64,000 nucleotides of DNA from Nitrospirota bacterium (GTDB taxonomy: Bacteria; Nitrospirota; UBA9217): NCBI GenBank assembly GCA_963818475.1, contig CAWFSF010000006.1, positions 256,001-320,000 of the forward strand, read 5' to 3'. Each line of letters opens with the position of its first letter. Within the stretch, counting starts at the first letter, position 1. Below are positions 6,002 to 33,638 of this stretch, piece after piece. The notes under the pieces are model-generated. The model did no database searches. It had not been told where the DNA came from and was given only the letters and a program-made list of their open reading frames with translations. The position numbers and the translations under genes are program-made.

Positions 6002-6134
6002 GAGCAGATCGTTTTTCGATGATTATTGAACGATACGGTCCTAAATCGGCATCCTTTCGGAGCCGTGCGGTTGCTCGTAAGAATTTGGCAGAGGCATTCC
6101 GGCAGGTCCAGGGAAGCCAAGGTGGCCCCAGTAC

Positions 6135-6167
6135 AGTCAACTGGTCGACAAGTGACCCTAAATTACC
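6135..6167 (+). repeat. Array site, right arm AGTCAA-N12-TGACCCT
   Basis: GGTCGACAAGTGACCCTAAATTACC (6143) is nearly identical to GGTCGAGAAGTGACCCTAAATGACC (8577). Confidence 0.7.
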
Positions 6168-6209
6168 CGAGAGGGAATGACCGTCGGCTTTTCAAAGGAG
6201 GGAAACAAC

Positions 6210-8489
6210 GTGATAAAAAGAAAAACGCGTACGAAAAAAACTGAAGAGTCCTTGCCCGAAATTATCGTCAAGTTTAAAGAGGGAGGAGCGCTGGAGGAAC
6301 AAAGAGGAATGCTCAGGGCCGAGCACCTCTCTCTCGATAGGTTTCATAAGACTATAAAAACGGCAAAAGGTGCCCGGGTTCGGCGGAGTTTTCCGGGAGA
6401 GATCAAATTGCTGCATGAGATGCATGATAAGGCAAGCAGGAATCTCGGCCGCCCCATCCTACATTTGGACCTGTTTGTGCGAGTTCGACTTAGGCAAACC
6501 GTCGATGTTGAGGCGTTCATAAAAGCACTATCGGACGATCCCGAGGCGGAATATGCCTGTTTGGCGGGGGTGCCAGGACCTCCCCCTCAAACGCCGGATT
6601 ACAGCGGTCAACAGGATTATCAGGATCCGGCGCCTGATGGCATTGATGCGTCGTATGCCTGGTTTTTCCCCGGAGGGAACGGCGCCGGCATCCAGGTCTG
6701 CGATTGTGAGTACGGCTTCAATCAAAGTCACGAAGATTTGCCGGCCGTCGTTGTAGTGTCCAACCGGGCCAATGACCTGACGTCGTATGCCGATCACGGC
6801 ACGGCGGTGCTGGGGGAACTGGCCGCGCGATCCGACGGCAAAGGTGTGACCGGCATCGGTCATGGAGCATCATACCTGTTTGCATCCGAGACTGGAGGCC
6901 ACAGAACAGACTGTATAACCGATGCCGTAGCCGCGCTCCTCCCCGGAGACGTCTTGATTTTGGAAATGCAAACAGGGTTGCCCTATAAACCTGCAGAATA
7001 TGACCCCGATGTTCATGCGGCGGTCACTACGGCGGTCGGGTTGGGTATAGTCGTCGTTGCGGCGGCCGGCAACGGTTCCGTTGATCTCACGACAGCGGCA
7101 AATGCAAATGGAAAATATATTTGGGACCCGTCTAGCGCCGATTTCGATGATTCAGGCGCGGTAATCGTCGGAGCTGGCGGTTCGATTACTAATGCCGATC
7201 CCCACTCGAAGCTGTGGTTCTCCAACTACGGGGTCCGCGTAAACTGCCAAGGATGGGGACAAAATGTCGTCACCGCCGGTTACGGCGCCCTATACAATGG
7301 CGGCGCGAACGCAATGTATACGGACTCGTTTAACGGCACGTCGAGCGCTACCCCTATCGTGGCCGGCGCGGTGGCCTGCCTTCAAGGGGCCGCCAGGCAG
7401 GCTTTGGGCATTCCGCTGTCCTCAAGCACTGTTCGCAGCGTAATTTCAGATCCGGCGAACGGCACGCCGCAGGCGAGTTCGACCGCATACCCCGCCACCA
7501 CCTATCCGATCGGACCGTTGCCGGACCTTAGGCGAGCGCTGCGCGCGGCCGGTATTTATCCCGATATTTACTTGCGTGATAACGTCGCCGACACGGGATC
7601 CGAGCCGTATATGGGAGGCGTTCTTTGCTGCAGCCCTGACATTATTTCCCGAAAGGGTCCCGTTGCCGATCCGTCGGCCGATTTCGGTCCGGCTGCATGG
7701 GGAGACGCAAATCTCGGAGAAAACATTGAATTCGGCCAGGACAATTATGTGTATGTCAGAATGCATAACCGGGGCAATGCTCCTGACGACGTAACAATCG
7801 TTGTTTACTGGACGAACGCCAGCGGGTTCATATATCCTGCTACCTGGAACATACTCGGTACGTTAAATGTCAACAACGTGCTGCCGGGAGAACACAGGGT
7901 GGCCGGCCCGATCATTTGGCCGGCCGCGCAAGTCCCGCCGGTAGGGCATTATTGTATGATCGGCGTGGTAAACTCCGTGCGCGACCCGGTCGCTGTCCCC
8001 GGCACATTTGCATCGGTGTCCGAATACCTCGATTTCGTACGAAATCACAACAATATATGCTATCGCAACGCAGACGTCGTGGATGCAGTTCCAGGTGCTC
8101 CAGCGCCGCCCTATACGTTTTTTCTGCGGGGGCTGCCCGACCAAGCCGCGCATTTTCGTCTGGAAATTCGGCACCGGCTTCCCAAAGATGCGCAGGCCGC
8201 GGTAGAAGTCGGAAAGAGTTTGAGGGGATTCGAGCGAATGGAAGAAGTAAGGAAGAAAAATGCGTTGATCCGCTATTTGGCGCCGAAGACGCTCCTGCCG
8301 ATCAAGGAAGGCGTGCCGTTAATCATAGATGAAATACCGCTGAAGATGAAAGAGGAAGTCCCCGTAAAAATATATGTTGAAATGCCGAAGAACGCTCCGC
8401 GTGGAGATTATATGATCTATGCCGACCAGTATCTCCGGGAAAAGCATCTGGGCCGCGTGAATTATATACTTCGGGTAAGAAAAAACTAA
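6210..8489 (+). CDS. Subtilisin-like S8 serine peptidase with C-terminal beta-rich domain
   Basis: Catalytic D (DCEYG), H (DHGTAVLG), oxyanion N (AAAGNG) and S (FNGTSSATP). GGAGG RBS before GTG at 6210. No obvious signal peptide. Confidence 0.9.
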   Translation: MIKRKTRTKKTEESLPEIIVKFKEGGALEEQRGMLRAEHLSLDRFHKTIKTAKGARVRRSFPGEIKLLHEMHDKASRNLGRPILHLDLFVRVRLRQTVDVEAFIKALSDDPEAEYACLAGVPGPPPQTPDYSGQQDYQDPAPDGIDASYAWFFPGGNGAGIQVCDCEYGFNQSHEDLPAVVVVSNRANDLTSYADHGTAVLGELAARSDGKGVTGIGHGASYLFASETGGHRTDCITDAVAALLPGDVLILEMQTGLPYKPAEYDPDVHAAVTTAVGLGIVVVAAAGNGSVDLTTAANANGKYIWDPSSADFDDSGAVIVGAGGSITNADPHSKLWFSNYGVRVNCQGWGQNVVTAGYGALYNGGANAMYTDSFNGTSSATPIVAGAVACLQGAARQALGIPLSSSTVRSVISDPANGTPQASSTAYPATTYPIGPLPDLRRALRAAGIYPDIYLRDNVADTGSEPYMGGVLCCSPDIISRKGPVADPSADFGPAAWGDANLGENIEFGQDNYVYVRMHNRGNAPDDVTIVVYWTNASGFIYPATWNILGTLNVNNVLPGEHRVAGPIIWPAAQVPPVGHYCMIGVVNSVRDPVAVPGTFASVSEYLDFVRNHNNICYRNADVVDAVPGAPAPPYTFFLRGLPDQAAHFRLEIRHRLPKDAQAAVEVGKSLRGFERMEEVRKKNALIRYLAPKTLLPIKEGVPLIIDEIPLKMKEEVPVKIYVEMPKNAPRGDYMIYADQYLREKHLGRVNYILRVRKN

Positions 8490-8518
8490 ACAGTTATGCG
8501 CCTTCTGGAGGAACCTAT

Positions 8519-8601
8519 AGGTGTCACCTTCCGATACTTGACAAGCATGAGTACGTTTGAGGCAAAAAACATCAAAGGTCGAGAAGTGACCCTAAATGAC
8601 C
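8519..8601. repeat. Array site, complete hairpin: AGGTGTCA-N11-TTGACA ... CATCAA-N11-TGACCCT
   Basis: Left arm 8519-8543 and right arm 8570-8593 are imperfectly complementary. Confidence 0.7.
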
Positions 8602-8611
8602 TCACGATGAT

Positions 8612-8770
8612 TTCTGGACGATCATCTCTATATCATGCAGAGGAGAGGCCTCGGCGCACAGAAGGGATTTTGTCATGAACAACCGGGGGGACGCGTGGAA
8701 CGGGACATGGGTAGAGACGCAATGGAAAAACACGAAATTCGTTCCTGCTGCATGGGGTGGCCGCGATGCG
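8612..8770 (+). pseudogene. Diverged duplicate fragment of the alpha-amylase 3' region
   Basis: Aligns by eye with about 5742-5903 (ATGCAGAGG..GCAGAAGGGATT..TGAACAACCGGGGGGA..TGGAACGGG..ACGCAATGGAAAAACAC) with an indel. Confidence 0.85.
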
Positions 8771-8995
8771 GAAACCGCTGCTACGTAATTAGCGCACCGC
8801 CTGGCTGGATCAGTACTTCGATGCGAGCGGAGAAAATAAAACCGCTCAGTTGAAATTCTGGATGCAAGCAGCCGGATGAGGAAGCATAGGGTCAAGATGC
8901 ATATATAAGCTGACATTCAGCATTTAAGAGTTTCAGAATTAAATTCTCCATCGTGAGGGAGTGGCTGAATAAAAGCAAGCGAGAGGTCTAAACTA

Positions 8996-10117
8996 ATGAA
9001 ATACACCCTCTGCATTACTCAACAATGTAATCTCCGGTGCACATATTGCTACATCGGCAAGAAGAACGCCCGGATGTCGCTTGCTCTCGCGAAGGATGTC
9101 ATCGACTTTATATTCAACAAAACCGCAGCGGGAGAAAAGATCCATTTTGGCTTCTTCGGCGGAGAGCCGCTCCTTGAATTTGAACTTCTTCGGACCATTA
9201 CGGAGATGGCAGAAGATCACCCGGCTTATCATAAGGAACTGTTTGAAATGACGGTTGTGTCAAACGGAACGATTTTTTCAAAAGAGATAGCCGACTTCCT
9301 GAAGGCCCACGACATCAGTTTGTGCATAAGTTGTGACGGACCGCCCTTTGTCCAGGACACGTTCAGACGCTTTGCGAGCGGGGAGGGAAGTTCGGCGGTT
9401 GTTGAAAGGAACTTGAAAACAGCTATCGAAATGCTGCCCTCTGTCATTGTGAATGCAGTCTACCACCCAAAGACACTTCTATTTCTTCCTCAAGTCGTTG
9501 AATATTTTTCCGACCTTGGGCTCCGGCAGATATACCTGAGTCCCGATTTTTCAGCGTTGTGGTCCAAGAGCGACGCTGATCGACTTCCCGAAATTTACAG
9601 TTCAGTCGCTGAGCAGTACATGAAACACTATCTTGCCGGAAGGCCTCGCTTCATCAGCTTGATTGACAGCAAAATTATCGTTCTCATGCGTGGCGGATAC
9701 GATCCTCGCGAGCGGTGCAGAATGGGAAAAGGGGAGTTTGCCTTTACGCCCTCGGGCAACATCTATCCTTGCGAGCGTCTCATCGAGAATGATTCGGGGG
9801 AGCACTGCATAGGCAACATTCGCACGAAAGTGCATGGAGAGAGGATGTCCTGCAAGGTCGCGCCTGCGCAGGAAGGGAACCGTGAATGCCTCTCCTGCGG
9901 GGTCCGGGATTATTGCATGAACTGGTGCGGCTGCTCTAATTATTTCTCGACTGGTTATTACAACCGGGTGGGGCCATTCCTGTGCGCTTCAGAAAGAGCG
10001 GCCATACAAACTGCGTTCTCGGTCTTCCGGACCCTTGAGAGAGAACTCGGTCCGACCTTTATTGATCACTTGACCGGTACGCCGATACTCGAAGGGAAGG
10101 AGGTGGAGCGAAGATAA
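8996..10117 (+). CDS. Radical SAM/SPASM-domain protein (anSME/peptide-maturase-like)
   Basis: CNLRCTYC, FFGGEPLL, and SPASM cysteines C..G....PSGNIYPC...CLSC...YCMNWCGC...C. Confidence 0.92.
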   Translation: MKYTLCITQQCNLRCTYCYIGKKNARMSLALAKDVIDFIFNKTAAGEKIHFGFFGGEPLLEFELLRTITEMAEDHPAYHKELFEMTVVSNGTIFSKEIADFLKAHDISLCISCDGPPFVQDTFRRFASGEGSSAVVERNLKTAIEMLPSVIVNAVYHPKTLLFLPQVVEYFSDLGLRQIYLSPDFSALWSKSDADRLPEIYSSVAEQYMKHYLAGRPRFISLIDSKIIVLMRGGYDPRERCRMGKGEFAFTPSGNIYPCERLIENDSGEHCIGNIRTKVHGERMSCKVAPAQEGNRECLSCGVRDYCMNWCGCSNYFSTGYYNRVGPFLCASERAAIQTAFSVFRTLERELGPTFIDHLTGTPILEGKEVERR

Positions 10118-10191
10118 ATTAAATTGCCCTAGGGTTTTTCGGGAGGAGAAGCAATAGCGTGTCGTGAATGTACAAAAGAAGGAGGTGTAAC

Positions 10192-10620
10192 ATGGGAGTA
10201 ATAAATGTGGAGGGGCTTTTATTAAGACGATTTATCGAGATAAATTTCGCAGTACCATGGGGCGGCGCAGGCCCCTATAATCCTTTTTGGATGGCGAACC
10301 ATTCTTTGGTCAGACAAATGATCAAGGAAAAAGGTTACAAGCCAGCCGCCGAGGGAATGCTTGCGGCACACATGGCCGCGCTGTCGATGGAAACAGGAGA
10401 ACGTTCAGAAGCGGTCTCCAAGATGAAACGGCCCATTCCGGGTGGAATAAGGGTTCCTCACCTGCACTTCGACACGGACATTTTCCTGCTCGATGAAAGC
10501 CAATGGAAAGATTTTTCTGCCAAGATGATGAAGGAATTCCAAGCTAAGCTGTCACGGGTGAACGCCGTGAGCTTTGAACAAGCCATGGCGATATCGGAAG
10601 CCGTGGACACCCTGGCATAA
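10192..10620 (+). CDS. Hypothetical 142-aa protein, candidate partner or substrate of the radical SAM enzyme
   Basis: Strong AAGGAGGTG RBS; lies immediately downstream of the rSAM gene; contains PGGIRVPHLHF. Confidence 0.75.
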   Translation: MGVINVEGLLLRRFIEINFAVPWGGAGPYNPFWMANHSLVRQMIKEKGYKPAAEGMLAAHMAALSMETGERSEAVSKMKRPIPGGIRVPHLHFDTDIFLLDESQWKDFSAKMMKEFQAKLSRVNAVSFEQAMAISEAVDTLA

Positions 10621-10662
10621 GAGTGGGGCATTTACGCAAATGCAAGTCTAAGGTAAATTCGT

Positions 10663-10713
10663 GGGGTCGCATCTATGATGGAGTAAACGCTTCAATTGCA
10701 AAGATGCGGCCCC
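10663..10713. repeat. Array site hairpin GGGGTCGCATCT-N27-AGATGCGGCCCC
   Basis: 12-bp inverted arms with one mismatch. The right arm fits the TTCAA-N11-YGRCCCC pattern. May also act as a terminator. Confidence 0.7.
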
Positions 10714-10832
10714 TTGTATTCCTTCTCAATTTCCTAATGGCAGACAATGGTTTCTGAATGCCAAAAGTAAAGACCTGAGAGCTTGGGCTGGTTGGGCTCT
10801 CCTGTAGCTATATAAACATTAAGGACCTGACC

Positions 10833-12745
10833 GTTCGCAGTAACAACTGATTATCTCGCGGGTTCAAGTCCCGCCCAAGGAGTTGTCCGTACACCTTGGT
10901 AGCACGAGGGAGCGGCGTCTGAGCAATCAGAGGTCGTGAGTTCCCAAACGGCAAAGCTACAGGCCGCAGCGAAAGCGAACCTACACGTAGCCTCGTAACT
11001 TATTCGGAGATGCCGACCTTGTGGTCAAATGGGGAAGGCCGATGCGCGCTGATTCAGACAACGGAATCGATCTGTGCGATCTCCCGGGGTAGCAGGGGCG
11101 GCATGTAGCGGAAGATAAGCAGTCCAGTGCTGGAGACCCCATACAGTGATGTTAGAGGAACATCAACCGGTGCGTATAAGGAAACGAAAACGCACTGGGC
11201 TGTATCGGGAGTCGGAGGGGTCCATAGTATCGTTTGAAGGTATGGGACAACATAACCCTGCCCGAGAAAAGGGACCCTGCTTTGTTCACGCAACCGAAGG
11301 AGAGAGGATGAGGGGATTGCAGAGATGCTAACAACCCCAGATACAATCAGGACACTCCAGAGGAAGCTCTACCGTAAGGCCAAGCAAGAACCGGCCTACC
11401 GCTTTTACGCGCTCTACGACAAGATACACCGGGCCGACATCCTCAGTCACGCCTACCATCTTGTCAGGGCCAACAAAGGAAGCGCCGGCATCGACGGCGT
11501 CACCTTCGAGGCCATAGAGACCGGAGAAGGGGTAATCGCCTTTTTGGCGGAGCTGCAAGAAGCACTGAAGAGCAAGACCTATGCACCAAACCCTGTAAAG
11601 CGCGTCATGATCCCCAAAGGAGACGGCACAGAGCGTCCCTTGGGAATCCCGACCATTAGGGACAGGGTGGCCCAGATGGCCGTAAAACTGGTCATCGAAC
11701 CGATATTTGAAGCGGATTTTATAGACACCTCATACGGATTCAGACCCAAGAAGTCGGCCCATGATGCAATCGAAGACATATCGTATGCCCTTAACTGCGG
11801 TTATACGGAAGTCATCGACGCCGATGTGTCCAGGTACTTCGACACCATTCCCCATGCCAAACTCATGGCCGTGGTCGCCGAGCGCATCGTTGACAGTGCG
11901 ATTCTGCACATTATCCAGATGTGGCTCAAGGCCCCGGTTATGGAAGTGGACAAGGACGGAACGAAGCGCAACATCGGCGGCGGCAAGGCAAACACCAAAG
12001 GAACACCGCAGGGCGGTGTCATCTCGCCGCTCCTGGCCAATCTCTATCTGCACCTGTTAGATAGGATATGGCATAAGAAGAAGCTTCAGTATAGGCTCGA
12101 AGCGCGTCTTGTCCGGTATGCCGACGATTTTGTCGTGCTGTGCAGAAAGGGAACTGAGCAGCCGATGGCGGTTGTGCGCCGGGTGCTCGAACGACTGGGA
12201 CTTGTACTCAATGAGAACAAGACCCGCATGGTGAACGCCAAGCAAGAAGGCTTCAACTTCCTTGGATTTGAACTTCGTATGGGGAAAAGTCGGAGAACGG
12301 GCAACCTTTACCCCCTTATACAACCGTCACGAAAAGCCCTGAAGAAGATCAAAGACAGCGTTACCGCTCTTACACACAGGCGGATGACGCCGAAGCCGCT
12401 TACTATGATAATCGAAGATATCAATACCGCCCTCCGGGGCTGGGTCGGGTACTTTCATTACCGCAATAGCAGCAAGGCGTTCAATCGTCTCAAGTTTCAT
12501 GTGGAAGCGCGAGTGCGCACGCATCTGCGAAAGCGGCATAAGATCAAAAGCAGGGCAGCGGGGTTTACCAGGTTCACCAACAGGTCTTTGTACGAGAAGT
12601 ATGGGCTCTATAAAGTGCCGACGACAGCGGGCTGGCTGAAGGCGCATGCCTTGCGGTGAAGAACATCGGAAAGCCGTGTGCGGGAAAACTGCATGCACGG
12701 TTTGATGAGGGAGGGCTGGTCAATACGACCAGCTCTCTACTCTAC
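10833..12745 (+). mobile_element. Group II intron, copy 1 (1913 bp, no endonuclease domain, probably class F/g1-like)
   Basis: Boundaries set from identity among the three copies, with the shared TGACC before and C after assigned to the exons. 5' end GTTCGC; DV AAGCCGTGTGCGGGAAAACTGCATGCACGGTTT; DVI ending CTCTACTCTAC. Class assignment is inference from the RT N-terminus. Confidence 0.93.
11325..12659 (+). CDS. ltrA: Group II intron reverse transcriptase/maturase
   Basis: RPLGIPTIRDR, SYGFRP, GTPQGGVISPLLANLYL, YADD, domain X (GWVGYF); no HNH domain. Confidence 0.97.
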   Translation: MLTTPDTIRTLQRKLYRKAKQEPAYRFYALYDKIHRADILSHAYHLVRANKGSAGIDGVTFEAIETGEGVIAFLAELQEALKSKTYAPNPVKRVMIPKGDGTERPLGIPTIRDRVAQMAVKLVIEPIFEADFIDTSYGFRPKKSAHDAIEDISYALNCGYTEVIDADVSRYFDTIPHAKLMAVVAERIVDSAILHIIQMWLKAPVMEVDKDGTKRNIGGGKANTKGTPQGGVISPLLANLYLHLLDRIWHKKKLQYRLEARLVRYADDFVVLCRKGTEQPMAVVRRVLERLGLVLNENKTRMVNAKQEGFNFLGFELRMGKSRRTGNLYPLIQPSRKALKKIKDSVTALTHRRMTPKPLTMIIEDINTALRGWVGYFHYRNSSKAFNRLKFHVEARVRTHLRKRHKIKSRAAGFTRFTNRSLYEKYGLYKVPTTAGWLKAHALR

Positions 12746-12774
12746 CTAACAAGTCTTAAAAGCTTGTATCGAAG

Positions 12775-12894
12775 ATGGACGTTCTTGCAAAATTGGAGGA
12801 GATTAAGCTGGAAGTCGCGGCAAAAGCCAGCACTCAACGCCTTGCGAATGGAATTCAAAAATATGTAATTGACGGGCTTTGTAAGTTGCTGTAA
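12775..12894 (+). CDS. 39-codon ORF or gene fragment between introns 1 and 2
   Basis: MDVLAKLEEIKLEVAAKASTQRLANGIQKYVIDGLCKLL, translated by hand; no clear RBS. Confidence 0.3.
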   Translation: MDVLAKLEEIKLEVAAKASTQRLANGIQKYVIDGLCKLL

Positions 12895-12959
12895 GACGGC
12901 TACTAAGCTTCGAAACTTGACTTGATTTGGATCACAAATGGCAATATTCAAGTCTGACC

Positions 12960-14872
12960 GTTCGCAGTAACAACTGATTATCTCGCGGGTTCAAGTCCCG
13001 CCCAAGGAGTTGTCCGTACACCTTGGTAGCACGAGGGAGCGGCGTCTGAGCAATCAGAGGTCGTGAGTTCCCAAACGGCAAAGCTACAGGCCGCAGCGAA
13101 AGCGAACCTACACGTAGCCTCGTAACTTATTCGGAGATGCCGACCTTGTGGTCAAATGGGGAAGGCCGATGCGCGCTGATTCAGACAACGGAATCGATCT
13201 GTGCGATCTCCCGGGGTAGCAGGGGCGGCATGTAGCGGAAGATAAGCAGTCCAGTGCTGGAGACCCCATACAGTGATGTTAGAGGAACATCAACCGGTGC
13301 GTATAAGGAAACGAAAACGCACTGGGCTGTATCGGGAGTCGGAGGGGTCCATAGTATCGTTTGAAGGTATGGGACAACATAACCCTGCCCGAGAAAAGGG
13401 ACCCTGCTTTGTTCACGCAACCGAAGGAGAGAGGATGAGGGGATTGCAGAGATGCTAACAACCCCAGATACAATCAGGACACTCCAGAGGAAGCTCTACC
13501 GTAAGGCCAAGCAAGAACCGGCCTACCGCTTTTACGCGCTCTACGACAAGATACACCGGGCCGACATCCTCAGTCACGCCTACCATCTTGTCAGGGCCAA
13601 CAAAGGAAGCGCCGGCATCGACGGCGTCACCTTCGAGGCCATAGAGACCGGAGAAGGGGTAATCGCCTTTTTGGCGGAGCTGCAAGAAGCACTGAAGAGC
13701 AAGACCTATGCACCAAACCCTGTAAAGCGCGTCATGATCCCCAAAGGAGACGGCACAGAGCGTCCCTTGGGAATCCCGACCATTAGGGACAGGGTGGCCC
13801 AGATGGCCGTAAAACTGGTCATCGAACCGATATTTGAAGCGGATTTTATAGACACCTCATACGGATTCAGACCCAAGAAGTCGGCCCATGATGCAATCGA
13901 AGACATATCGTATGCCCTTAACTGCGGTTATACGGAAGTCATCGACGCCGATGTGTCCAGGTACTTCGACACCATTCCCCATGCCAAACTCATGGCCGTG
14001 GTCGCCGAGCGCATCGTTGACAGTGCGATTCTGCACATTATCCAGATGTGGCTCAAGGCCCCGGTTATGGAAGTGGACAAGGACGGAACGAAGCGCAACA
14101 TCGGCGGCGGCAAGGCAAACACCAAAGGAACACCGCAGGGCGGTGTCATCTCGCCGCTCCTGGCCAATCTCTATCTGCACCTGTTAGATAGGATATGGCA
14201 TAAGAAGAAGCTTCAGTATAGGCTCGAAGCGCGTCTTGTCCGGTATGCCGACGATTTTGTCGTGCTGTGCAGAAAGGGAACTGAGCAGCCGATGGCGGTT
14301 GTGCGCCGGGTGCTCGAACGACTGGGACTTGTACTCAATGAGAACAAGACCCGCATGGTGAACGCCAAGCAAGAAGGCTTCAACTTCCTTGGATTTGAAC
14401 TTCGTATGGGGAAAAGTCGGAGAACGGGCAACCTTTACCCCCTTATACAACCGTCACGAAAAGCCCTGAAGAAGATCAAAGACAGCGTTACCGCTCTTAC
14501 ACACAGGCGGATGACGCCGAAGCCGCTTACTATGATAATCGAAGATATCAATACCGCCCTCCGGGGCTGGGTCGGGTACTTTCATTACCGCAATAGCAGC
14601 AAGGCGTTCAATCGTCTCAAGTTTCATGTGGAAGCGCGAGTGCGCACGCATCTGCGAAAGCGGCATAAGATCAAAAGCAGGGCAGCGGGGTTTACCAGGT
14701 TCACCAACAGGTCTTTGTACGAGAAGTATGGGCTCTATAAAGTGCCGACGACAGCGGGCTGGCTGAAGGCGCATGCCTTGCGGTGAAGAACATCGGAAAG
14801 CCGTGTGCGGGAAAACTGCATGCACGGTTTGATGAGGGAGGGCTGGTCAATACGACCAGCTCTCTACTCTAC
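12960..14872 (+). mobile_element. Group II intron, copy 2
   Basis: Offset +2127 from copy 1 with an identical ORF track. Flanks TTCAAGTCTGACC | CCAAAG. Confidence 0.93.
13452..14786 (+). CDS. ltrA: Group II intron reverse transcriptase/maturase
   Basis: Protein identical to that of 11325-12659. Confidence 0.97.
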   Translation: MLTTPDTIRTLQRKLYRKAKQEPAYRFYALYDKIHRADILSHAYHLVRANKGSAGIDGVTFEAIETGEGVIAFLAELQEALKSKTYAPNPVKRVMIPKGDGTERPLGIPTIRDRVAQMAVKLVIEPIFEADFIDTSYGFRPKKSAHDAIEDISYALNCGYTEVIDADVSRYFDTIPHAKLMAVVAERIVDSAILHIIQMWLKAPVMEVDKDGTKRNIGGGKANTKGTPQGGVISPLLANLYLHLLDRIWHKKKLQYRLEARLVRYADDFVVLCRKGTEQPMAVVRRVLERLGLVLNENKTRMVNAKQEGFNFLGFELRMGKSRRTGNLYPLIQPSRKALKKIKDSVTALTHRRMTPKPLTMIIEDINTALRGWVGYFHYRNSSKAFNRLKFHVEARVRTHLRKRHKIKSRAAGFTRFTNRSLYEKYGLYKVPTTAGWLKAHALR

Positions 14873-15026
14873 CCAAAGGCACTCGCTGTAATGGCACGAA
14901 TTATCTTCCGTAACTGCGGCGTAAGGATAGAGGCGTTGGCTGGCTCTCAGAGTGGACATAACTTATATTTAGCAAGTGAGGGTGGGAGGGGGCGGGACGC
15001 CCCTGAAGAAAAACTAAGGAGGCTTT

Positions 15027-15725: not shown

Positions 15726-15746
15726 TTTTCGGGCCATGCCTGGAAA

Positions 15747-15793
15747 GTCAAATCTTCGATGTTGACAAGTATGTAACGAATGAAGATTTGACC
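15747..15793. repeat. Array site hairpin GTCAAATCTTC..TTGACA..TGTAAC..GAAGATTTGAC, target of intron copy 3
   Basis: Perfect 11-bp outer arms with an imperfect inner stem; the intron starts right after TGACC. Confidence 0.8.
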
Positions 15794-17706
15794 GTTCGCA
15801 GTAACAACTGATTATCTCGCGGGTTCAAGTCCCGCCCAAGGAGTTGTCCGTACACCTTGGTAGCACGAGGGAGCGGCGTCTGAGCAATCAGAGGTCGTGA
15901 GTTCCCAAACGGCAAAGCTACAGGCCGCAGCGAAAGCGAACCTACACGTAGCCTCGTAACTTATTCGGAGATGCCGACCTTGTGGTCAAATGGGGAAGGC
16001 CGATGCGCGCTGATTCAGACAACGGAATCGATCTGTGCGATCTCCCGGGGTAGCAGGGGCGGCATGTAGCGGAAGATAAGCAGTCCAGTGCTGGAGACCC
16101 CATACAGTGATGTTAGAGGAACATCAACCGGTGCGTATAAGGAAACGAAAACGCACTGGGCTGTATCGGGAGTCGGAGGGGTCCATAGTATCGTTTGAAG
16201 GTATGGGACAACATAACCCTGCCCGAGAAAAGGGACCCTGCTTTGTTCACGCAACCGAAGGAGAGAGGATGAGGGGATTGCAGAGATGCTAACAACCCCA
16301 GATACAATCAGGACACTCCAGAGGAAGCTCTACCGTAAGGCCAAGCAAGAACCGGCCTACCGCTTTTACGCGCTCTACGACAAGATACACCGGGCCGACA
16401 TCCTCAGTCACGCCTACCATCTTGTCAGGGCCAACAAAGGAAGCGCCGGCATCGACGGCGTCACCTTCGAGGCCATAGAGACCGGAGAAGGGGTAATCGC
16501 CTTTTTGGCGGAGCTGCAAGAAGCACTGAAGAGCAAGACCTATGCACCAAACCCTGTAAAGCGCGTCATGATCCCCAAAGGAGACGGCACAGAGCGTCCC
16601 TTGGGAATCCCGACCATTAGGGACAGGGTGGCCCAGATGGCCGTAAAACTGGTCATCGAACCGATATTTGAAGCGGATTTTATAGACACCTCATACGGAT
16701 TCAGACCCAAGAAGTCGGCCCATGATGCAATCGAAGACATATCGTATGCCCTTAACTGCGGTTATACGGAAGTCATCGACGCCGATGTGTCCAGGTACTT
16801 CGACACCATTCCCCATGCCAAACTCATGGCCGTGGTCGCCGAGCGCATCGTTGACAGTGCGATTCTGCACATTATCCAGATGTGGCTCAAGGCCCCGGTT
16901 ATGGAAGTGGACAAGGACGGAACGAAGCGCAACATCGGCGGCGGCAAGGCAAACACCAAAGGAACACCGCAGGGCGGTGTCATCTCGCCGCTCCTGGCCA
17001 ATCTCTATCTGCACCTGTTAGATAGGATATGGCATAAGAAGAAGCTTCAGTATAGGCTCGAAGCGCGTCTTGTCCGGTATGCCGACGATTTTGTCGTGCT
17101 GTGCAGAAAGGGAACTGAGCAGCCGATGGCGGTTGTGCGCCGGGTGCTCGAACGACTGGGACTTGTACTCAATGAGAACAAGACCCGCATGGTGAACGCC
17201 AAGCAAGAAGGCTTCAACTTCCTTGGATTTGAACTTCGTATGGGGAAAAGTCGGAGAACGGGCAACCTTTACCCCCTTATACAACCGTCACGAAAAGCCC
17301 TGAAGAAGATCAAAGACAGCGTTACCGCTCTTACACACAGGCGGATGACGCCGAAGCCGCTTACTATGATAATCGAAGATATCAATACCGCCCTCCGGGG
17401 CTGGGTCGGGTACTTTCATTACCGCAATAGCAGCAAGGCGTTCAATCGTCTCAAGTTTCATGTGGAAGCGCGAGTGCGCACGCATCTGCGAAAGCGGCAT
17501 AAGATCAAAAGCAGGGCAGCGGGGTTTACCAGGTTCACCAACAGGTCTTTGTACGAGAAGTATGGGCTCTATAAAGTGCCGACGACAGCGGGCTGGCTGA
17601 AGGCGCATGCCTTGCGGTGAAGAACATCGGAAAGCCGTGTGCGGGAAAACTGCATGCACGGTTTGATGAGGGAGGGCTGGTCAATACGACCAGCTCTCTA
17701 CTCTAC
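15794..17706 (+). mobile_element. Group II intron, copy 3
   Basis: Offset +4961 from copy 1. Flanks GAAGATTTGACC | CCCGTA. Confidence 0.93.
16286..17620 (+). CDS. ltrA: Group II intron reverse transcriptase/maturase
   Basis: Protein identical to the other two copies. Confidence 0.97.
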   Translation: MLTTPDTIRTLQRKLYRKAKQEPAYRFYALYDKIHRADILSHAYHLVRANKGSAGIDGVTFEAIETGEGVIAFLAELQEALKSKTYAPNPVKRVMIPKGDGTERPLGIPTIRDRVAQMAVKLVIEPIFEADFIDTSYGFRPKKSAHDAIEDISYALNCGYTEVIDADVSRYFDTIPHAKLMAVVAERIVDSAILHIIQMWLKAPVMEVDKDGTKRNIGGGKANTKGTPQGGVISPLLANLYLHLLDRIWHKKKLQYRLEARLVRYADDFVVLCRKGTEQPMAVVRRVLERLGLVLNENKTRMVNAKQEGFNFLGFELRMGKSRRTGNLYPLIQPSRKALKKIKDSVTALTHRRMTPKPLTMIIEDINTALRGWVGYFHYRNSSKAFNRLKFHVEARVRTHLRKRHKIKSRAAGFTRFTNRSLYEKYGLYKVPTTAGWLKAHALR

Positions 17707-17711
17707 CCCGT

Positions 17712-18023
17712 ATGTTTCACCCGTCTTCCTGGAAAGGTATACCATTGTCCCTTACTTTTAGCGGTACGTTGAACCTAAGTGTCGATGTTGTTCGTGGCAA
17801 TCCAGTGGATATTTTTTTAATAGATCAATCAGAGTTAGAAAATTATCAGAATCATAAACAGTTTAATCATTATACTAATTTCACGGCAGACAAAACAAAG
17901 GTTTACAAACGTTCAGCTCGTTTAGCAGAAGGTATTTATTATCTTGTCCTCCGTGATAATACTCTCGGCATTCTGTCTGCCTCAAGTAGCGATGTAAAAA
18001 TAATGGCACGATTAGAACCCTGA
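17712..18023 (+). pseudogene. Probably 5'-truncated gene for a beta-sandwich domain protein
   Basis: Starts 5 bp after the intron/site junction with no RBS; AT-rich coding-like sequence (VDIFLIDQSELENY...GIYYLVLRDN). Confidence 0.5.
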
Positions 18024-18139
18024 GGTCGTGAATAAAAATAAACGCCAAAATAAAAGACCTGACACTGAAAGGGTCGATTTCGGCAACTGGGTGAGAATTC
18101 CGCAATAAGCGTGATGTGCTTAGGTGGATGAAGAAATAA

Positions 18140-18185
18140 GGGGACAAACTGACTTTATGCTTTTTCGATAAAGCCAGCTTGCCCC
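18140..18185. repeat. Hairpin GGGGACAAACTGACTTTAT-N9-ATAAAGCCAGCTTGCCCC
   Basis: Imperfect inverted repeat, GGGGAC variant of the array sites. Confidence 0.65.
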
Positions 18186-18215
18186 TCGTTATTCAGGGCG
18201 AACAGGAGAAGCTTA

Positions 18216-18254
18216 GGAAAGCATAGATAGAAACAATGTCCCGCAAGTGGTCCC
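18216..18254 (+). repeat. Second site family GGAAAGCATAGATAGAAACAATGTCCC (other copies at 20987, 23198, weaker at about 25117)
   Basis: Direct comparison with GGAAAGCATAGAAAAAAAAGCGTCCC and GGAAAGCATGCATAGAAACAACGTCCC. Confidence 0.7.
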
Positions 18255-18368
18255 AGTCAGATTCAAAAAAAACACTTGGAGTCATTCAACAACAAGTGCC
18301 AGGAGTCTCTGAATAGTCCCCGGTTATGATGCAATAGGGATCGTCGGCATGCGGCCGGTGCCATTTTA

Positions 18369-18384
18369 TGGTACAAGTATTGCG
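18369..18384 (+). promoter_or_regulatory. Putative sigma-54 promoter
   Basis: TGGTAC-AAGTA-TTGCG gives GG-N10-GC, 45 bp upstream of the ATG at 18429. Confidence 0.5.
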
Positions 18385-18428
18385 AAATCTCTTTCATAAA
18401 CACTGAATTTCATACGAGGGGGTAGGTA

Positions 18429-20150: not shown

Positions 20151-20418
20151 TGAAGAAAACCAGAAAAGCAGTTACTTATTAGAATAATGTTAAATAGTAA
20201 AGAATGTTTGCAGCAGCTGGTGTTAGCAAAGCCGCCGCGGCAGACTCAGGATAAACCGTGGTGGGGCGAGTACTATGTAGACGTTCGAAAAATACGAGAC
20301 CGTGAGCTCTTTGCTTAGAAGGGAACGTAATAATTAACTAATGCGGCGTTCCGTAGCCTGCAGAAGCCGCACGAAATCGCAAGTAGCGTGCGACTGTGAC
20401 CGCAAGGGAGGATTCAAA

Positions 20419-20823
20419 ATGGCGACGACACCTAAGGAAGAATATTTCGACGCTTATACGGAGCATACGAAAACGTTGAGGACCTGGCTTGTCGCGTACG
20501 GGATCGGTGCGCCGGTTCTTTTCATGACGAACGCAAAACTTGTTGATAAGTTTTCGGGTTCGCTCGATGCAAAGCTTATTACCGGATTATTTTTAGCCGG
20601 CGTTGTCCTGCAGGTGTTTCTGGCAGTCATGAACAAAGCAGTGAACTGGGCTTCCTATTTCGCAGTAGGCCATCCAAAGAGAAAAGACGAAAGGTTATTT
20701 GCATTTGCCTGTTGGTTCTGCGACCAATTCTGGGTAGATATGTTAATTGACATCGGCAGCCTCATTTGTTTTGCCATTGCAACATGGAAATCGTTTGCGC
20801 TCTTTGTTGGACAGACTTCATAG
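20419..20823 (+). CDS. Hypothetical membrane protein (3 TM)
   Basis: GGAGG RBS before ATG 20419; three hydrophobic segments. Confidence 0.7.
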   Translation: MATTPKEEYFDAYTEHTKTLRTWLVAYGIGAPVLFMTNAKLVDKFSGSLDAKLITGLFLAGVVLQVFLAVMNKAVNWASYFAVGHPKRKDERLFAFACWFCDQFWVDMLIDIGSLICFAIATWKSFALFVGQTS

Positions 20824-21264
20824 TTGTCTGAGTAGCTTCGGTTTGGGGTGAAATAAACGCGATGATGTCAAACTTCACCCTTCAACCTTCAAACTTCTTA
20901 GGCTGACGCCTGATGAGCATAATGAATTGATCGATTCTTTAAAAAAGAATTTCAAATTATAACCTGCGATATGTGTCTCGTTGAAGGGAAAGCATAGAAA
21001 AAAAAGCGTCCCCAAAAATTGCAGAAGCTTAAGTAAGGTCCACTTAAGGGGTAGTGGACGCGCGGGAAGACGACGGAGATGGAGAATTTTACGCACTGCC
21101 GTGATAGTATACGGTTTACATACAATGCAATTAAGAACGTAACGAACGCTCGGCAAGGAAAAAGCAAACGCTTGCTTGACACGTATCATCGGTAAGCTCA
21201 TACTGCCTCAACTGAATTTCCCGAAAAGGTATGGAGTGTTCAAGCTTCACTCTTCAAACTTCTT

Positions 21265-21783
21265 ATGGTGATCATCCGGCAGTGCAGGCAGAGCGATTTC
21301 GATGCAATGTATGTCATCATCAACGATGCCGCGCAGGCATACCGGGACGTCATTCCTGCTGATCGCTGGAACGAGCCCTATATGTCCCGCGAATACCTTC
21401 AGCATGAGATCGATGATGGCGTCGCATTCTGGGGATACGAGGAGAACGGCGAACTGATCGGCGTGATGGGCATCCAGGCTGTTCAGAACGTCACGCTCAT
21501 CCGTCATGCCTACGTGCGGACAGCAGATCGCGGCAAAGGCATCGGCGGCAAGCTGCTGTCGGCACTGAAACGGAAGACCAGCGGACCTACGCTGGTGGGC
21601 ACCTGGAAGGCCGCTGTCTGGGCAATCCGGTTCTACGAAAAGTACGGGTATCGGCTCGTGACCGAGCAACAGAAGGAACAGCTGCTCCGGAAGTACTGGA
21701 AGATCCCCGAACGGCAGGTGGAAACGTCGGTTGTTCTGGCGGACCGGACATGGTTCGAGATGGGTAGTGAGCGCCGGGAGTAA
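21265..21783 (+). CDS. GNAT family N-acetyltransferase
   Basis: RHAYV..DRGKGIGGKLL and AIRFYEKYGY. Confidence 0.9.
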   Translation: MVIIRQCRQSDFDAMYVIINDAAQAYRDVIPADRWNEPYMSREYLQHEIDDGVAFWGYEENGELIGVMGIQAVQNVTLIRHAYVRTADRGKGIGGKLLSALKRKTSGPTLVGTWKAAVWAIRFYEKYGYRLVTEQQKEQLLRKYWKIPERQVETSVVLADRTWFEMGSERRE

Positions 21784-21810
21784 CGCAACATAAGTAACAA
21801 CGAGTCGGTC

Positions 21811-21945
21811 TAAAGTCCCGACGACAGCGGGCTGGACGAAGGCGCATGCCTTGCGGCTGAAGAACATCGAAAGCTGTGTGCGGGAAAACCGCATGCACGG
21901 TTTGATGAGGGAGAGCTGGTCATTACGACCAGCTCTCTACTCTAC
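21811..21945 (+). mobile_element. Diverged 3'-end remnant (ORF end, DV, DVI) of a related group II intron
   Basis: Matches about 12611-12745 with several substitutions and indels; followed by CC, as in copies 2 and 3. Confidence 0.9.
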
Positions 21946-22010
21946 CCAAACGGTCCCGGGCAAGATTCTCAGAAAGCTAACAAAGCGCTTCAACGAGGGG
22001 AGAATAAGCT

Positions 22011-23150
22011 ATGCAATTACAGAGAGGTGACCAGCTGTCTGATAGTTCCGAGGCACTCAAGGTCCTTACCTTGATTATCCCTTTAGGCCTGGCCGGCATC
22101 CTTGTTTATTCGCTACAATTTTGCGATCTAAAGATAATAACTTCGGTGCTGGGGGTGGCGGCAATGCTCGCAGGGGCGTCGCTGCTTCTCGGTGGCTTGG
22201 TCGGTTTTCTGTTTGGCATTCCGCGCACGCTCCAGAAGGCCATGCAGCCAAATGGAGAAGAGAAAGATGCCCGTGAGACAGGACCCGAAAGAGTATCATA
22301 TCAGGCCAATACCAATCTTGAACAAATATCCGATTGGCTTACAAAAATAATAATCGGCGTCGGCCTTACACAGCTCACAAATATTCCGGGCAAACTGCTG
22401 CAGCTTGCCGATTATGTATCGGCCGGACTGGGCAGCAGCACTAGCGGGAGACCGTTTGCACTCGTTGTCATCCTTTATTTTACTGTAAGCGGCTTCTTAT
22501 TTGGCTACCTGTGGACCCGGCTTTTTCTCGCGGGTGAACTTAAGAAAGCTGAGATGAATGTTTCAAAACTGCTTGCACAGTCGATCGCGACTCTTGATGC
22601 AGTCGAACCACGCCTCAATGAAAATGACAAAAAAACGTTTCAAGAATTCAGGCAGGAGGCCGAAAAACAATTGGCCTTTATGCTGCCTGATGCAAAATTG
22701 ATGCAACAGCTTGAGAAATTCGCACAGGAGTATGAACTGGTTCGTAAAATAATGAAACCGGGCCGAGAGCTAACGGTTCAAATGGGGACCATCCTGGCCC
22801 AGGTCAGGGCATTGGCGCAAAAGGTTAACTACAAGCCGGACATTATTAATAAGTTATTCGCTACGGGAACAGACGGCAATCGAATCGTGTCTCTCGGACT
22901 CCTGCAGATTTTGCTTTACCCGCAGTGCGGCGATATCGTTTTGGACTCGATTGCACATTCTAAATCTGCGTTTGAGCAATATCAGGCTCTCCGGGCCGCT
23001 GAAGATATGCTGCCGTTCTTGGATGAAGGGAGCAAGAAAAAGCTGTCGGATATTTTAAAAGACCAGCGAAGCGGCGTGGAAGGGAAATTCATCACCAGGG
23101 ATTCCGATCGATGGGGCTTGAGCGAAAGAATACTGGCTCAATTAAAATAG
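22011..23150 (+). CDS. Hypothetical membrane protein (4 TM plus helical C-terminal domain)
   Basis: 379-aa ORF with RBS; LVGFLFGIPR...NTNLEQISDWLTKIIIGVGLTQL segment. Confidence 0.8.
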   Translation: MQLQRGDQLSDSSEALKVLTLIIPLGLAGILVYSLQFCDLKIITSVLGVAAMLAGASLLLGGLVGFLFGIPRTLQKAMQPNGEEKDARETGPERVSYQANTNLEQISDWLTKIIIGVGLTQLTNIPGKLLQLADYVSAGLGSSTSGRPFALVVILYFTVSGFLFGYLWTRLFLAGELKKAEMNVSKLLAQSIATLDAVEPRLNENDKKTFQEFRQEAEKQLAFMLPDAKLMQQLEKFAQEYELVRKIMKPGRELTVQMGTILAQVRALAQKVNYKPDIINKLFATGTDGNRIVSLGLLQILLYPQCGDIVLDSIAHSKSAFEQYQALRAAEDMLPFLDEGSKKKLSDILKDQRSGVEGKFITRDSDRWGLSERILAQLK

Positions 23151-23237
23151 ACAATAATTTATATTGGTCAAAGAGCGGACGGTAAGGAGCTCGCAAGGGA
23201 AAGCATGCATAGAAACAACGTCCCGAAAGTTTCCCCG

Positions 23238-23850
23238 GATAAACAAATTCTTTGAGGATGTATTGGGTTACGATGTGTTTACTGAAATATCGCGAGAACA
23301 CGTCGTTAAGGAACGAAATGTCGATTATGCGATTAAACTCAACGGCAAAGTAAAATTCTTTATTGAAGTAAAGCAAGCTGGAATAAATCTGAAGGAAAAG
23401 CATATAGAACAAGCGGAAAACTACGCTGCAAACTCCGGGGTTCCCTGGGTTCTTTTGACCAACGGTGTCTATTGGCAGCTCTATCACCTAAGTTTCGAAG
23501 ATGGGATCCAGAGCGATTTGGTTCTCTCTGTAGATCTCAAAGAAGGTGACATTAAAGAGGCTGCACAGGCATTGGGAATACTTCATAGGAAAAGTGTTCT
23601 GAAAGGCGAGATAGAGGAGTTTTACGAGAAGGTAAAAACACTCTCGCCTAAGAGCATAGTTCAGGCACTATTTCACGAAAGTACCTTAAAAGTCATTCGC
23701 GCTTGTCTAAAGAGCAGTCATGGAATCAGAGTTGACGAGCAAGAGTTGGTGGATAATATCAGAAAAATGATTTCCAAGGAAACCTGGGAGTCTATCGGGG
23801 ATGTTAAGATTACAAGAAAAAGAAAAACAAAGCCAAAGGCGAAGGAAGAA
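23238..23850 (+). pseudogene. Type I restriction enzyme HsdR N-terminal-domain protein, truncated at both ends
   Basis: DVLGYD...VDYAIK...FIEVK...QAENYA...LTNG motifs. The recognisable part starts just after the GTCCC site and ends at the GTTCAGG repeat. Confidence 0.7.
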
Positions 23851-23899
23851 GTTCAGGGTTCAGGGTTCAGGGTTCAGGGTTCAGGGTTCAGGGTTCAGA
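23851..23899. repeat. Heptamer tandem repeat (GTTCAGG) x7
   Basis: Counted directly; the last unit is GTTCAGA. Confidence 0.95.
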
Positions 23900-23914
23900 T
23901 CTCTCATCAAGACC

Positions 23915-23966
23915 GCCCCTCGCCCTCGCCCTCTAACTCGAGGGGGAGGGAAAAGGGGAGAGGGTG
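23915..23966. repeat. CCCTC..GAGGG palindromic element (DUF559-associated family); another copy at 24903-24940
   Basis: Similar to the elements flanking 55011-55361. Confidence 0.65.
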
Positions 23967-24059
23967 CTTGGTTATTGAGAATCTTCAGGGTCGGGTCTAC
24001 TTTCTTTTTCTCATTCCTTCCGCATATCGACATCACAGCCTTCCCTCGGAGACCTAGAA

Positions 24060-24533
24060 CTACTTGGCGGACAGAACAATGTCCCCCTTGGTGCCTTCCA
24101 CAATGGCAATGAGCTCACTCTGCTCCTTTGGAGGGACCTTGAACTTATTCAGGCTCTTCTTGAAGTCAACCACCATTGCCTGCCACTCTGTCTCGGTGAT
24201 GGCAAGATGACGGTGAGCATCCTTCATGGAGCGCCCCGTGTACTGGCAGGGGCCGCCGGTCACCTGGCAGACCAGGGCGGTCACCTGAAATTTCAGTCCG
24301 GCTTTGGGTACCCGCTGTCTTGCTTCGTTGATTTTCGGATTTGCGTTCAGCGTCTTGTTGATCAACAGCCGTTCAATAAAGTCGTCCACGAGGGTCGCGA
24401 TGCTGTAAACGCCCCCAAGCCGATCATGCAGCGACGGCTCCTGCTTCTCCTGAGCGCCGGCGGGGACAGCATTCCCCAGGACGGTCAGGACGACCAGGAA
24501 TGAAAAAGCCATTACCATACTGAGTTTCTTCAT
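24060..24533 (-). CDS. Group I truncated hemoglobin with N-terminal signal peptide
   Basis: SLHDRLGG, LVDDF, VTGGPCQYTGRSMKDAH (proximal His); MKK-hydrophobic-AGA leader. Confidence 0.9.
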   Translation of the reverse strand: MKKLSMVMAFSFLVVLTVLGNAVPAGAQEKQEPSLHDRLGGVYSIATLVDDFIERLLINKTLNANPKINEARQRVPKAGLKFQVTALVCQVTGGPCQYTGRSMKDAHRHLAITETEWQAMVVDFKKSLNKFKVPPKEQSELIAIVEGTKGDIVLSAK

Positions 24534-24627
24534 AGGTTCCACAACTCCTTTCTTGGTGCAAAAAAACTTTTCTTTCTCCCCCTCGCTTTCCATCCGGAAA
24601 GGACGAGCCATCGGAGAATTTTTCTAA

Positions 24628-24655
24628 AGTATATCCCTGCCCTCCGAATTGTCAA
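24628..24655 (-). promoter_or_regulatory. Sigma-70-type promoter TTGACA-N16-TATACT
   Basis: Read on the minus strand upstream of the globin gene. Confidence 0.65.
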
Positions 24656-24750
24656 GCCGGCATACTGCACCTTAAATTCCCCTCATACGCCACCTGTCGG
24701 TTTTGACAGGTGACACACGTTGAAAATATTCATATAATAAACCATTACCT

Positions 24751-24823
24751 CGCTCTTCCCCCAGATCGTCGGCGGCGCCTTTATCGGGACCGGTATCGGG
24801 CTCGCCGTAGGCAGGCGCTGAGA
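24751..24823 (+). pseudogene. Internally deleted 3' remnant of the LysE gene
   Basis: Joins sequence matching about 34014-34036 to sequence matching about 34190-34243. Confidence 0.85.
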
Positions 24824-29734: not shown

Positions 29735-29773
29735 CCGGGGGCCTTGCAGAACGTCGTACCGGGATGGGGCAGG

Positions 29774-33443: not shown

Positions 33444-33638
33444 GACTATTGGGGTCAGACTTTAAAATTGACATTCTGGCTTTTCTCGGAGAGCTACGGA
33501 GATCTAGAGGGTCGGTCTGCTTTCTTACCATTCGGACTCTTTAGAAAATGGACTTAATCGGGATGGATACGCCGCACTATGAATCCTCGCCCACCAGGAA
33601 AGGACCGCTACAGTGTCCCTTGAATTCTGGCTCCTCTA
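33444..33638 (+). repeat. Segment duplicated at 34910-35130 (hairpin left arm GGGGTCA-N10-TTGACA plus the LysE leader and start)
   Basis: GACTATTGGGGTCAGACTTTAAAATTGACATTCTGGC and GAATCCTCGCCCACCAGGAAAGGA..TGTCCCTTGAATTCTGGCTCCTCTA occur in both copies. Confidence 0.9.

Follow-up and report, generated by a model that had tools for sequence, protein, structure and literature searches.

Ends of RAYT-like Y1 elements in an accessory-gene island of a Nitrospirota bacterium: probable transposon scars and REPIN-like doublets used as landing sites by group II introns

The island described here lies between positions 6000 and 36100 of a 64,000-nt stretch of the genome of a Nitrospirota bacterium. The whole stretch (C6:256001-320000 of the source genome G000) is called the window, and positions are window coordinates unless one of the contigs of G000 (C1, C2, C3, C5 and C6) is named. 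The GC content of the island is 44-55%, as against 58-65% on both flanks, and it is bordered by an amylase gene on one side and by a LysE/fatty-acid-synthase flank on the other; the island is horizontally acquired. Its cargo includes a subtilase, a radical S-adenosylmethionine (SAM) peptide maturase, an acetyltransferase, a solute-binding protein, an HSDR_N-like protein with a restriction-enzyme-like N-terminal domain, a globin, c-di-GMP signalling proteins, PilZ proteins and several open reading frames (ORFs) without any family. Almost all long ORFs are on the + strand, but so are the flanking housekeeping genes, and the cumulative GC skew climbs over the entire stretch; therefore, the co-orientation is not special to the island. 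Mostly positioned behind these genes are units of about 36 nt, some of which are cut by group II introns, and this set of sites had been read in the initial annotation as an integron-like cassette array. With moderate confidence, we consider the sites to be scars of transposon ends together with elements resembling REPINs (hairpin-forming doublets of repetitive extragenic palindromic, REP, sequences), which serve introns for landing and mark break points within a hot spot.

Repeated units and the ends of Y1 elements

The initial annotation had listed eight right arms and four left arms of one motif, TGYCAA-N10-12-TGACCCY. The quoted letters are present at all coordinates, but the motif is loose and none of the right arms (0/8) matches it exactly. 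When up to two mismatches were allowed, seven matches were found on the + strand of 6000-25000, as compared with 1.86 predicted from the genome-wide density, and four of the seven are the listed sites 6135, 8570, 12939 and 18043. Sites 10759, 10811 and 15772 are reached only with three mismatches, where about 27 matches against 18.4 expected correspond to the chance level. The instances are also not one uniform site, as had been supposed, but a mixture of intron-cut units, solo units, doublets and a separate hairpin at 10691.

The distribution of the units was determined with a position matrix based on eight training units, all from outside the window and including those flanking genes for RAYT-like proteins (REP-associated tyrosine transposases); hits were graded as strong from 18 bits and weaker from 14 bits, and block-shuffled genomes served as the control. 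Of its 36 genome hits of at least 18 bits, this matrix places 5 in the island, where 0.23 are expected; at the 14-bit level it is 9 out of 89, with 0.57 expected, and the shuffled genomes give 4 and 33 hits, respectively. The units are enriched about 20-fold in the island. With a second matrix, 80 hits against 23 in the shuffled genome were obtained at 14 bits, and the hits are concentrated in few regions. Half of the listed right arms (8570, 10759, 10811, 18043) and two of the four left arms (33454, 34919) were recovered by the outside-trained matrix, but the other two left arms were not. Moreover, after alignment on TGAC, units of the window have 17-22 of 24 upstream nt in common with outside units or RAYT ends (the 99.9th percentile for random TGAC sites is 14), and 26 of 231 unit pairs share at least 14 of 24 nt against a background rate of 0.12%, figures biased upward by the choice of units by eye, a bias that the outside-trained matrix removes in part. 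Two other searches were discarded: an nhmmer profile from nine right arms, too short and degenerate, gave no significant match in the genome (best E = 2.8), and the strict pattern GGGTCA-N15-120-TGACCC gave 26 genome hits, nearly all due to chance.

The units, hairpins and introns of the window are given below, with matrix scores in bits; z values come from folding as single-stranded DNA and are relative to shuffles.

6135..6167, + strand: solo unit of left-end type, reversed (...TGACCC), 134 nt past the amylase stop codon; 23 of 25 nt in common with 8577-8601; z -0.6
8515..8601, + strand: inverted doublet H1, a hairpin resembling REPINs or miniature inverted-repeat transposable elements (MITEs); family consensus stem 16+6 bp; z -2.1
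8883..8918, - strand: unit standing alone ahead of the radical SAM gene, in direct orientation (the + strand reads GGGTCA...); 18.1 bits with the second matrix, to whose training set it belonged
10664..10714, + strand: separate hairpin with a 12-bp stem (site 10691), after ORF 10168-10620; z -3.6; without a matrix hit and hence not a unit
10752..10787, + strand: degenerate unit of right-end type (site 10759); 14.3 bits; 17-18 of 24 nt in common with units 18043 and 34788
10804..10832, + strand: unit cut by intron 1; 15.4 bits; 18 of 24 nt as in the right end of the RAYT element at C3:145.7 kb
10833..12745, + strand: group II intron copy 1; the product of ORF 11325-12659 within it is a reverse transcriptase/maturase without an endonuclease domain (TIGR04416, 396.8 bits)
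12930..12959, + strand: unit cut by intron 2, in a weak partial hairpin; 17 of 24 nt in common with unit 33452
12960..14872, + strand: group II intron copy 2, 100% identical to copy 1
15745..15793, + strand: inverted doublet H2; z -5.5, with 0/200 shuffles folding as well; the final base of the 3' arm is the insertion point of intron 3
15794..17706, + strand: group II intron copy 3, 100% identical to copy 1
18036..18071, + strand: unit of right-end type (CCTGACAC); 30.0 bits; nearly identical to the right end of the RAYT element of the relative G021; no hairpin
21811..21945, + strand: remnant of a group II intron that lacks the 5' part (135 nt of the 3' end are kept, 93% identical), preceded by a unit from a second repeat family
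33446..33481, - strand: unit of left-end type with inner TTGACA, upstream of a LysE copy; 23.4 bits
34782..34817, - strand: unit of left-end type; 36.3 bits; a matching unit is at the same relative place in the congener G003
34911-34946 and 34974-35009, - strand: two units of left-end type; 23.4 and 15.5 bits

The description of the sites as hairpins is true for three of the eight right arms, which lie in clear hairpins of single-stranded DNA (15742-15793, z -5.5; 10660-10718, z -3.6; 8512-8604, z -2.1), whereas 6135, 18043 and 10759/10811 are not hairpins and 12939 is weak (12890-12959, z -1.9). Doublets resembling H1 were detected with a covariance model in 17 of the 64 genomes of the family comparison set, with one to five matches each. 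The copies in other genera are 78-88% identical; the genes beside them are unrelated, and many are small ORFs or belong to toxin-antitoxin modules or to a defence type. No compensatory change was found in the 22 pairs of the H1 stem (0/22); therefore, an element acting at the DNA level fits better than a selected RNA structure, for which the stem gives no support. G000 contains five inverted doublets, three of them occupied by the intron, and the genes upstream of the four that were examined (the fifth is on C2) are large and mutually unrelated. A conserved tail of one gene family was likewise rejected as an explanation of the doublets, the preceding genes being not homologous (E = 0.059 and 0.14). 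An empty site for an H1-like element was sought by comparing G073 with G070, and a 990-bp indel comprising a response-regulator gene, a small region and the element was found; its borders lie away from the element, therefore the insertion target is not readable from this pair.

Judged by their sequence, the units are kin to the ends of Y1 elements. The genome has 11 Y1_Tnp matches, none of them in the window and the nearest about 175 kb off. The RAYT-like Y1 proteins are 281-292 amino acids (aa) long and are encoded by elements of about 1 kb. The protein on C3 reaches 88.9 bits on the NCBIfam model NF047646 'REP-associated tyrosine transposase' (cut-off 80) and has an HYH motif and a Tyr within RYVVLNP; the family matches PF01797 (E = 7e-13) and carries a C-terminal helix-turn-helix tail. 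Inverted units surround the Y1 gene at C3:145673(-)/146576(+) and at C5:403054(-)/403955(+), and also on contig L101 of G021, where units 6945(-)/7848(+) enclose a Y1 gene at 7003-7854 and the element lies 4.7 kb downstream of that genome's copy of the amylase gene. The outer tips of the element are GGGTCA on the left and CCTGACAC on the right, and on the inner side of the left end is a TTGACA-like hexamer, which the TGYCAA half-site matches as reverse complement. The family was matched in 46 of the 64 genomes, often as multiple copies and fragments, with up to 85-86% amino-acid identity across genera. The proposed enzyme class, a Y1/RAYT-type transposase acting in trans, fits these data, in which the identical unit type flanks RAYT-like Y1 genes as inverted repeats; adjacency of the sites to such a gene was observed elsewhere in G000 and in the G021 hot spot, but not within the window.

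A second Y1 family, of about 330 aa and with 68.2 bits below the RAYT cut-off of 80, is present at C1:262748, C5:529982, C5:626532 and C6:903290. Its genes lie between inverted repeats of another kind (TTGGGGACGTTGTT...), which include a good -35/-10 promoter; the window has degenerate copies of these repeats at 18224, 21780 and 25130, and they are directly adjoined by intron fragments at C6:908953 and at window 21811. In this family the TTGACA-like hexamer stands 17 nt ahead of a TAGAAT-like box in front of the gene; the hexamer at the inner edge of the unit is therefore probably the -35 box of the transposase promoter. A short Y1 gene of 194 aa (C6:1262359-1262943) lies between classical-looking REP hairpins with a GTAG head, to which the hairpin at window 24691-24713 is related in type.

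Group II introns at the units

The intron is 1913 nt long, of which about 578 nt are outside the ORF, and each of the three window copies matches the ribozyme models RF02005 (66.1 bits) and RF00029 (54.2 bits). Six full copies are present in the genome, three of them in the window, and each of the six has GACC as the end of its 5' exon and C as the first letter of its 3' exon. The insertion of the intron at GACC^C therefore accounts for the uniform 3' appearance of sites 10811, 12939 and 15772, whose interruption was already implied by the caret marks of the initial annotation, and the crossover at GACC^CC that had been assigned to these sites is the intron insertion point in 6/6 copies. The motif GGTCA at intron positions 191-195 is complementary to the exon end and could be the exon-binding site. 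A purine-rich stretch at -12 to -8 of the intron targets is also conserved, which hints at sequence pairing beyond the 4-nt GACC. Three of the six targets are at the 3' foot of a strong hairpin, one is at a weak hairpin and one inside a tRNA terminator, while no hairpin immediately precedes the copy at 10811. All introns of the window point the same way as the neighbouring ORFs.

The window is preceded, at a distance of 13 kb, by a sixth copy (C6:241301-243213), which interrupts the 5' arm of a terminator hairpin immediately behind a tRNA gene; C6:233610 holds a weak integrase fragment. The association of such introns with repeats has a precedent: REP elements are hot spots for insertion sequences, and of nine copies of group II introns in Pseudomonas putida KT2440 two are associated with REPs (PMC1525189).

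Module boundaries and competing explanations

The congener G003 has, between the same flanks, 15.6 kb of mostly different cargo, in which two modules common to G000 stand in a different order. The genes and gene fragments of the window that bear on the module limits are as follows.

4635-5201 and 5033-6001: amylase gene, two overlapping ORFs in the window, a single ORF of 454 aa in G021
6177..8489, + strand: subtilase (Peptidase_S8) gene, cargo between two units
8617..8768, + strand: 5'-truncated copy of the 3' part of the amylase gene, 81-87% identical to 5747-5903; begins 26 nt past the TGAC of H1
17712..18023, + strand: ORF of a 5'-truncated gene, directly after the intron-bearing doublet; a full version of 161 aa is present in G003
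24745..24823, + strand: LysE 3' fragment; a perfect 9-bp hairpin (24691-24713, z -2.8) lies 30 nt upstream

The statement that cargo starts mid-gene close to the sites is borne out by four cases, namely ORF 17712-18023, the amylase fragment 8617-8768, the LysE fragment 24745-24823 and the intron remnant 21811-21945. The coincidence of breakpoints with sites stands in part: shared modules break beside units, but the distance varies between 0 and 26 nt and there is no one fixed crossover point. A site after every cassette was not found, since several genes of the window lack a unit and the G003 island has five strong units for about a dozen genes, four of the five at its right end.

The units are probably scars or non-autonomous derivatives that arose by repeated insertion and by adjacent deletion or recombination. 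The units of about 36 nt form the two ends of small RAYT-like Y1 (HUH) elements; such elements, together with gene-less doublets, would insert repeatedly into the horizontally acquired hot spot. Deletions or recombination beside the element ends would then leave solo units next to truncated genes. In the window the units are present without a transposase gene, either as solo ends or as inverted doublets able to fold like REPINs or MITEs. The intron may recognise the terminus of the unit, a purine-rich stretch followed by GACC^C; it has homed into three units here and into two elsewhere, and its three identical copies add substrates for rearrangement. If this is correct, the island is an example, outside the usual model bacteria, of transposon ends that mark the landing of introns, insertion sequences (IS) and foreign genes. 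It also calls for caution, as the target preference of an intron can make unrelated sites resemble one recombination motif.

Several observations weigh against the interpretation as scars, in addition to the selection of units by eye mentioned above. Single units are not palindromes, and their copy number is low, roughly 30-55 real units after subtraction of shuffled hits, grouped in few islands. The Y1 gene is multi-copy (9 matches in G000, up to 25 in one relative), unlike typical RAYTs. In metagenome data the limits of the subtilase module coincide exactly with units: contigs about 96-97% identical from two sediment metagenomes cover 6143-8601 only, and one of them continues for about 1.4 kb past 8601 with unlike sequence (the metagenome evidence comprises contigs from three runs in small shares, 0.07-0.14 of the sampled words, and only the covered parts are informative). 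Furthermore, four genomes, each from another genus, have an amylase 3' fragment beyond the intact amylase gene; three of these have a unit 0-26 nt ahead of the fragment, the start of which differs each time, and the order amylase gene, cargo, unit and amylase 3' fragment recurs in three genera. This recurring order and the exact limits of the subtilase module are more orderly than random scarring and leave room for active joining at the units.

The explanation that survives best beside the preferred one is the capture of cassettes, in which a Y1 enzyme encoded elsewhere would cut unit ends on single-stranded DNA and move or join gene-plus-unit modules at the fixed hot spot at the amylase 3' end, which would make an integron analogue driven by an HUH enzyme; we regard it as rather unlikely. 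It explains the order of gene, cargo, unit and gene fragment better than scarring does, and the limits of the subtilase module and the amylase fragments described above speak for it. Homology between G000 and G003 in the module of the 161-aa gene ends about 13 nt beyond the TGAC of unit 18043, and the segment 8883-10832, with the radical SAM gene and ORF150, is flanked by a left-end unit and by right-end-like units in the proper orientation. The large unrelated genes ahead of four of the five G000 doublets and the Y1 element in the same hot spot of G021 are also in favour. However, the Y1 gene is not in the window but about 175 kb away at the nearest, the junction distances of 0-26 nt do not define a single crossover point, and many genes of the island, like most of those in the G003 island, have no unit behind them. 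The 134-nt piece at 12756-12888 has a second locus on C5, and there it is turned round with respect to the units beside it. Four loci in unrelated lineages carry relatives of the radical SAM module (56-57% amino-acid identity), none of them with convincing units at its flanks; one hit of 21 bits lies inside a gene-sized region and another reaches 14 bits. Excised circles or joints at the sites, the former of which the initial annotation had proposed to look for, were not seen in the metagenome contigs aligned to the window. No direct sign of mobilisation was seen, and the integron-like stockpiling system is left as a proposal.

A bolder form of this idea, which we hold to be quite improbable, is that the ends of Y1 elements are active joining sites, that unit-terminated segments have been spliced repeatedly just inside the 3' end of the amylase gene, and that modules have been exchanged between genera. 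If true, each splicing would leave an amylase 3' fragment behind a unit, and the system would be a counterpart of the integron driven by a single-strand transposase, with a group II intron riding the same sites. HUH enzymes would then stand beside tyrosine recombinases as builders of cassette arrays, a new route to gene stockpiling.

It is also unlikely that the resemblance of the sites is mostly incidental, a product of terminator-like gene ends and the target preference of the intron in a mosaic formed by illegitimate or homologous recombination after gene transfer, in the making of which the sites had no part. The chance level of the consensus at three mismatches, the four of eight right arms that do not fold and the uniform GACC^C accounted for by the intron are compatible with it, and recombination would find ample other substrates in the three identical introns, in an IS110-family element and in further families of repeats. 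Against it stand the roughly 20-fold enrichment in the island by a matrix trained elsewhere, the match of the units with Y1-element ends far above background and the maintenance of H1 at 78-88% identity across genera beside unrelated genes.

A divergent integron, or an integrase-less cluster whose sites drifted from the attC consensus, is close to refuted. Like an integron array or an integrase-less cluster of attC sites, the island has co-oriented accessory genes, many of no known function, separated by imperfect palindromes of 50-90 nt; its content varies between relatives, group II introns are inserted at the sites in a manner that recalls group IIC-attC introns (PMC3001079), and toxin-antitoxin genes stand beside H1-like elements in other genomes. 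However, no integron integrase (IntI) is present, as the initial annotation had stated for the window: the best TIGR02249 match in the genome has 105 bits against a cut-off of 265 and skips model positions 180-233, and there is no hit to PF00589, the tyrosine recombinase family, within C6:256001-320000. The sites are indeed not attC, since the attC-end pattern RYYYAAC/GTTRRRY occurs at two starts (one site, both strands) in 6000-36100 against 4.3 +/- 2.9 in 30 shuffles, and such ends are absent from all listed sites, which are instead ends of Y1 elements. Sites are missing behind many genes, gene fragments adjoin them and the junction points vary, in contrast to an integron array. The introns are also on the same strand as the neighbouring ORFs and their targets are not attC, whereas IIC-attC introns occupy the bottom strand of attC and run counter to the transcription of the cassettes (PMC3001079).

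Metagenome contigs contain 1-nt indels near 5104-5181 of the amylase gene, and the split of this gene may reflect a frameshifted gene or an assembly error. A paralogous locus of the window segment 33441-36090 is present at C6:872531-876160, with two LysE copies and a PilZ gene; the same locus includes a 940-nt segment 98% identical to window 23882-24822 (the end of the HSDR_N-like ORF, the globin gene and the LysE 3' fragment), and LysE 5' fragments are also found in the window at 35078 and 35991. A short repeat rich in TTCAAACTTCA-like words occurs on both strands at 20874-20906, 21239-21271 and 29767-29840. One copy is placed immediately before the start codon of the acetyltransferase, and in G003 a copy together with an acetyltransferase 5' fragment lies upstream of the amylase gene.

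Comparison with known systems and other repeats

The closest known match of the units and their enzyme is the REPIN-RAYT pair. The Y1 HUH protein passes the NCBIfam RAYT model, its gene lies between two inverted units of the type that is dispersed in the genome, the gene-less doublets form hairpins and solo units are located behind genes. Classical REPs have hundreds of copies spread around the chromosome and a GTAG-type head, and typical RAYTs are single-copy. Here the units number in the tens and are clustered in islands, a single unit is not palindromic, and no GTAG-type head was seen on the units, for which no dedicated test was made. The protein is about twice as long and has the helix-turn-helix C-terminal tail, and the gene is multi-copy with many fragments and is shared across genera, unlike a single-copy, vertically inherited RAYT. 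The doublets also differ in being conserved across genera (78-88%) beside unrelated genes. A RAYT-like family that behaves as an insertion sequence, multi-copy and crossing genera, blurs the boundary between domesticated RAYTs and IS200-type elements. The use of units as landing sites by other mobile elements is a further likeness, reported for REPs (PMC1525189). Multicopy intergenic sequences are described for Geobacter genomes (PMC2700814).

With the IS200/IS605 group the elements have in common the Y1 transposase, several intact and decayed copies per genome and short gene-less derivatives, and single-strand transposition would be consistent with the common strand of the solo units. IS200/IS605 elements have different subterminal hairpins at their two ends and a fixed short target sequence, whereas the elements described here end in inverted terminal units of 25-36 nt; no TnpB partner gene was found beside the Y1 copies read. 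The intron is similar to class C group II introns in being small, in having a reverse transcriptase without an endonuclease domain and in lying mostly at hairpins, a likeness that is not a class assignment; it differs in the copy at 10811, which lacks a hairpin directly upstream, and in the purine stretch, which hints at extra pairing.

Other repeats of the genome also touch the units. The IS110-family element is located at C6:868694-870301, and its 3' region of about 300 nt is present also at C5:187635, C5:609604, C5:632931 and C2:737272, being repeated five times with 98-100% identity; one partial copy begins 7 nt after a unit. Clusters of a 2.5-kb repeat with 86-93% identity are found at C5:180-195 kb, C5:627-637 kb, C6:828-832 kb and C1:304-307 kb; these are probably RHS/YD-type genes, and some of the C5 copies end in a unit of left-end type. 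In a second unit-rich region, an ORF of 1852 aa with an SpvB domain is followed by a TcdB-middle/FG-GAP ORF (C6:892176-898494).

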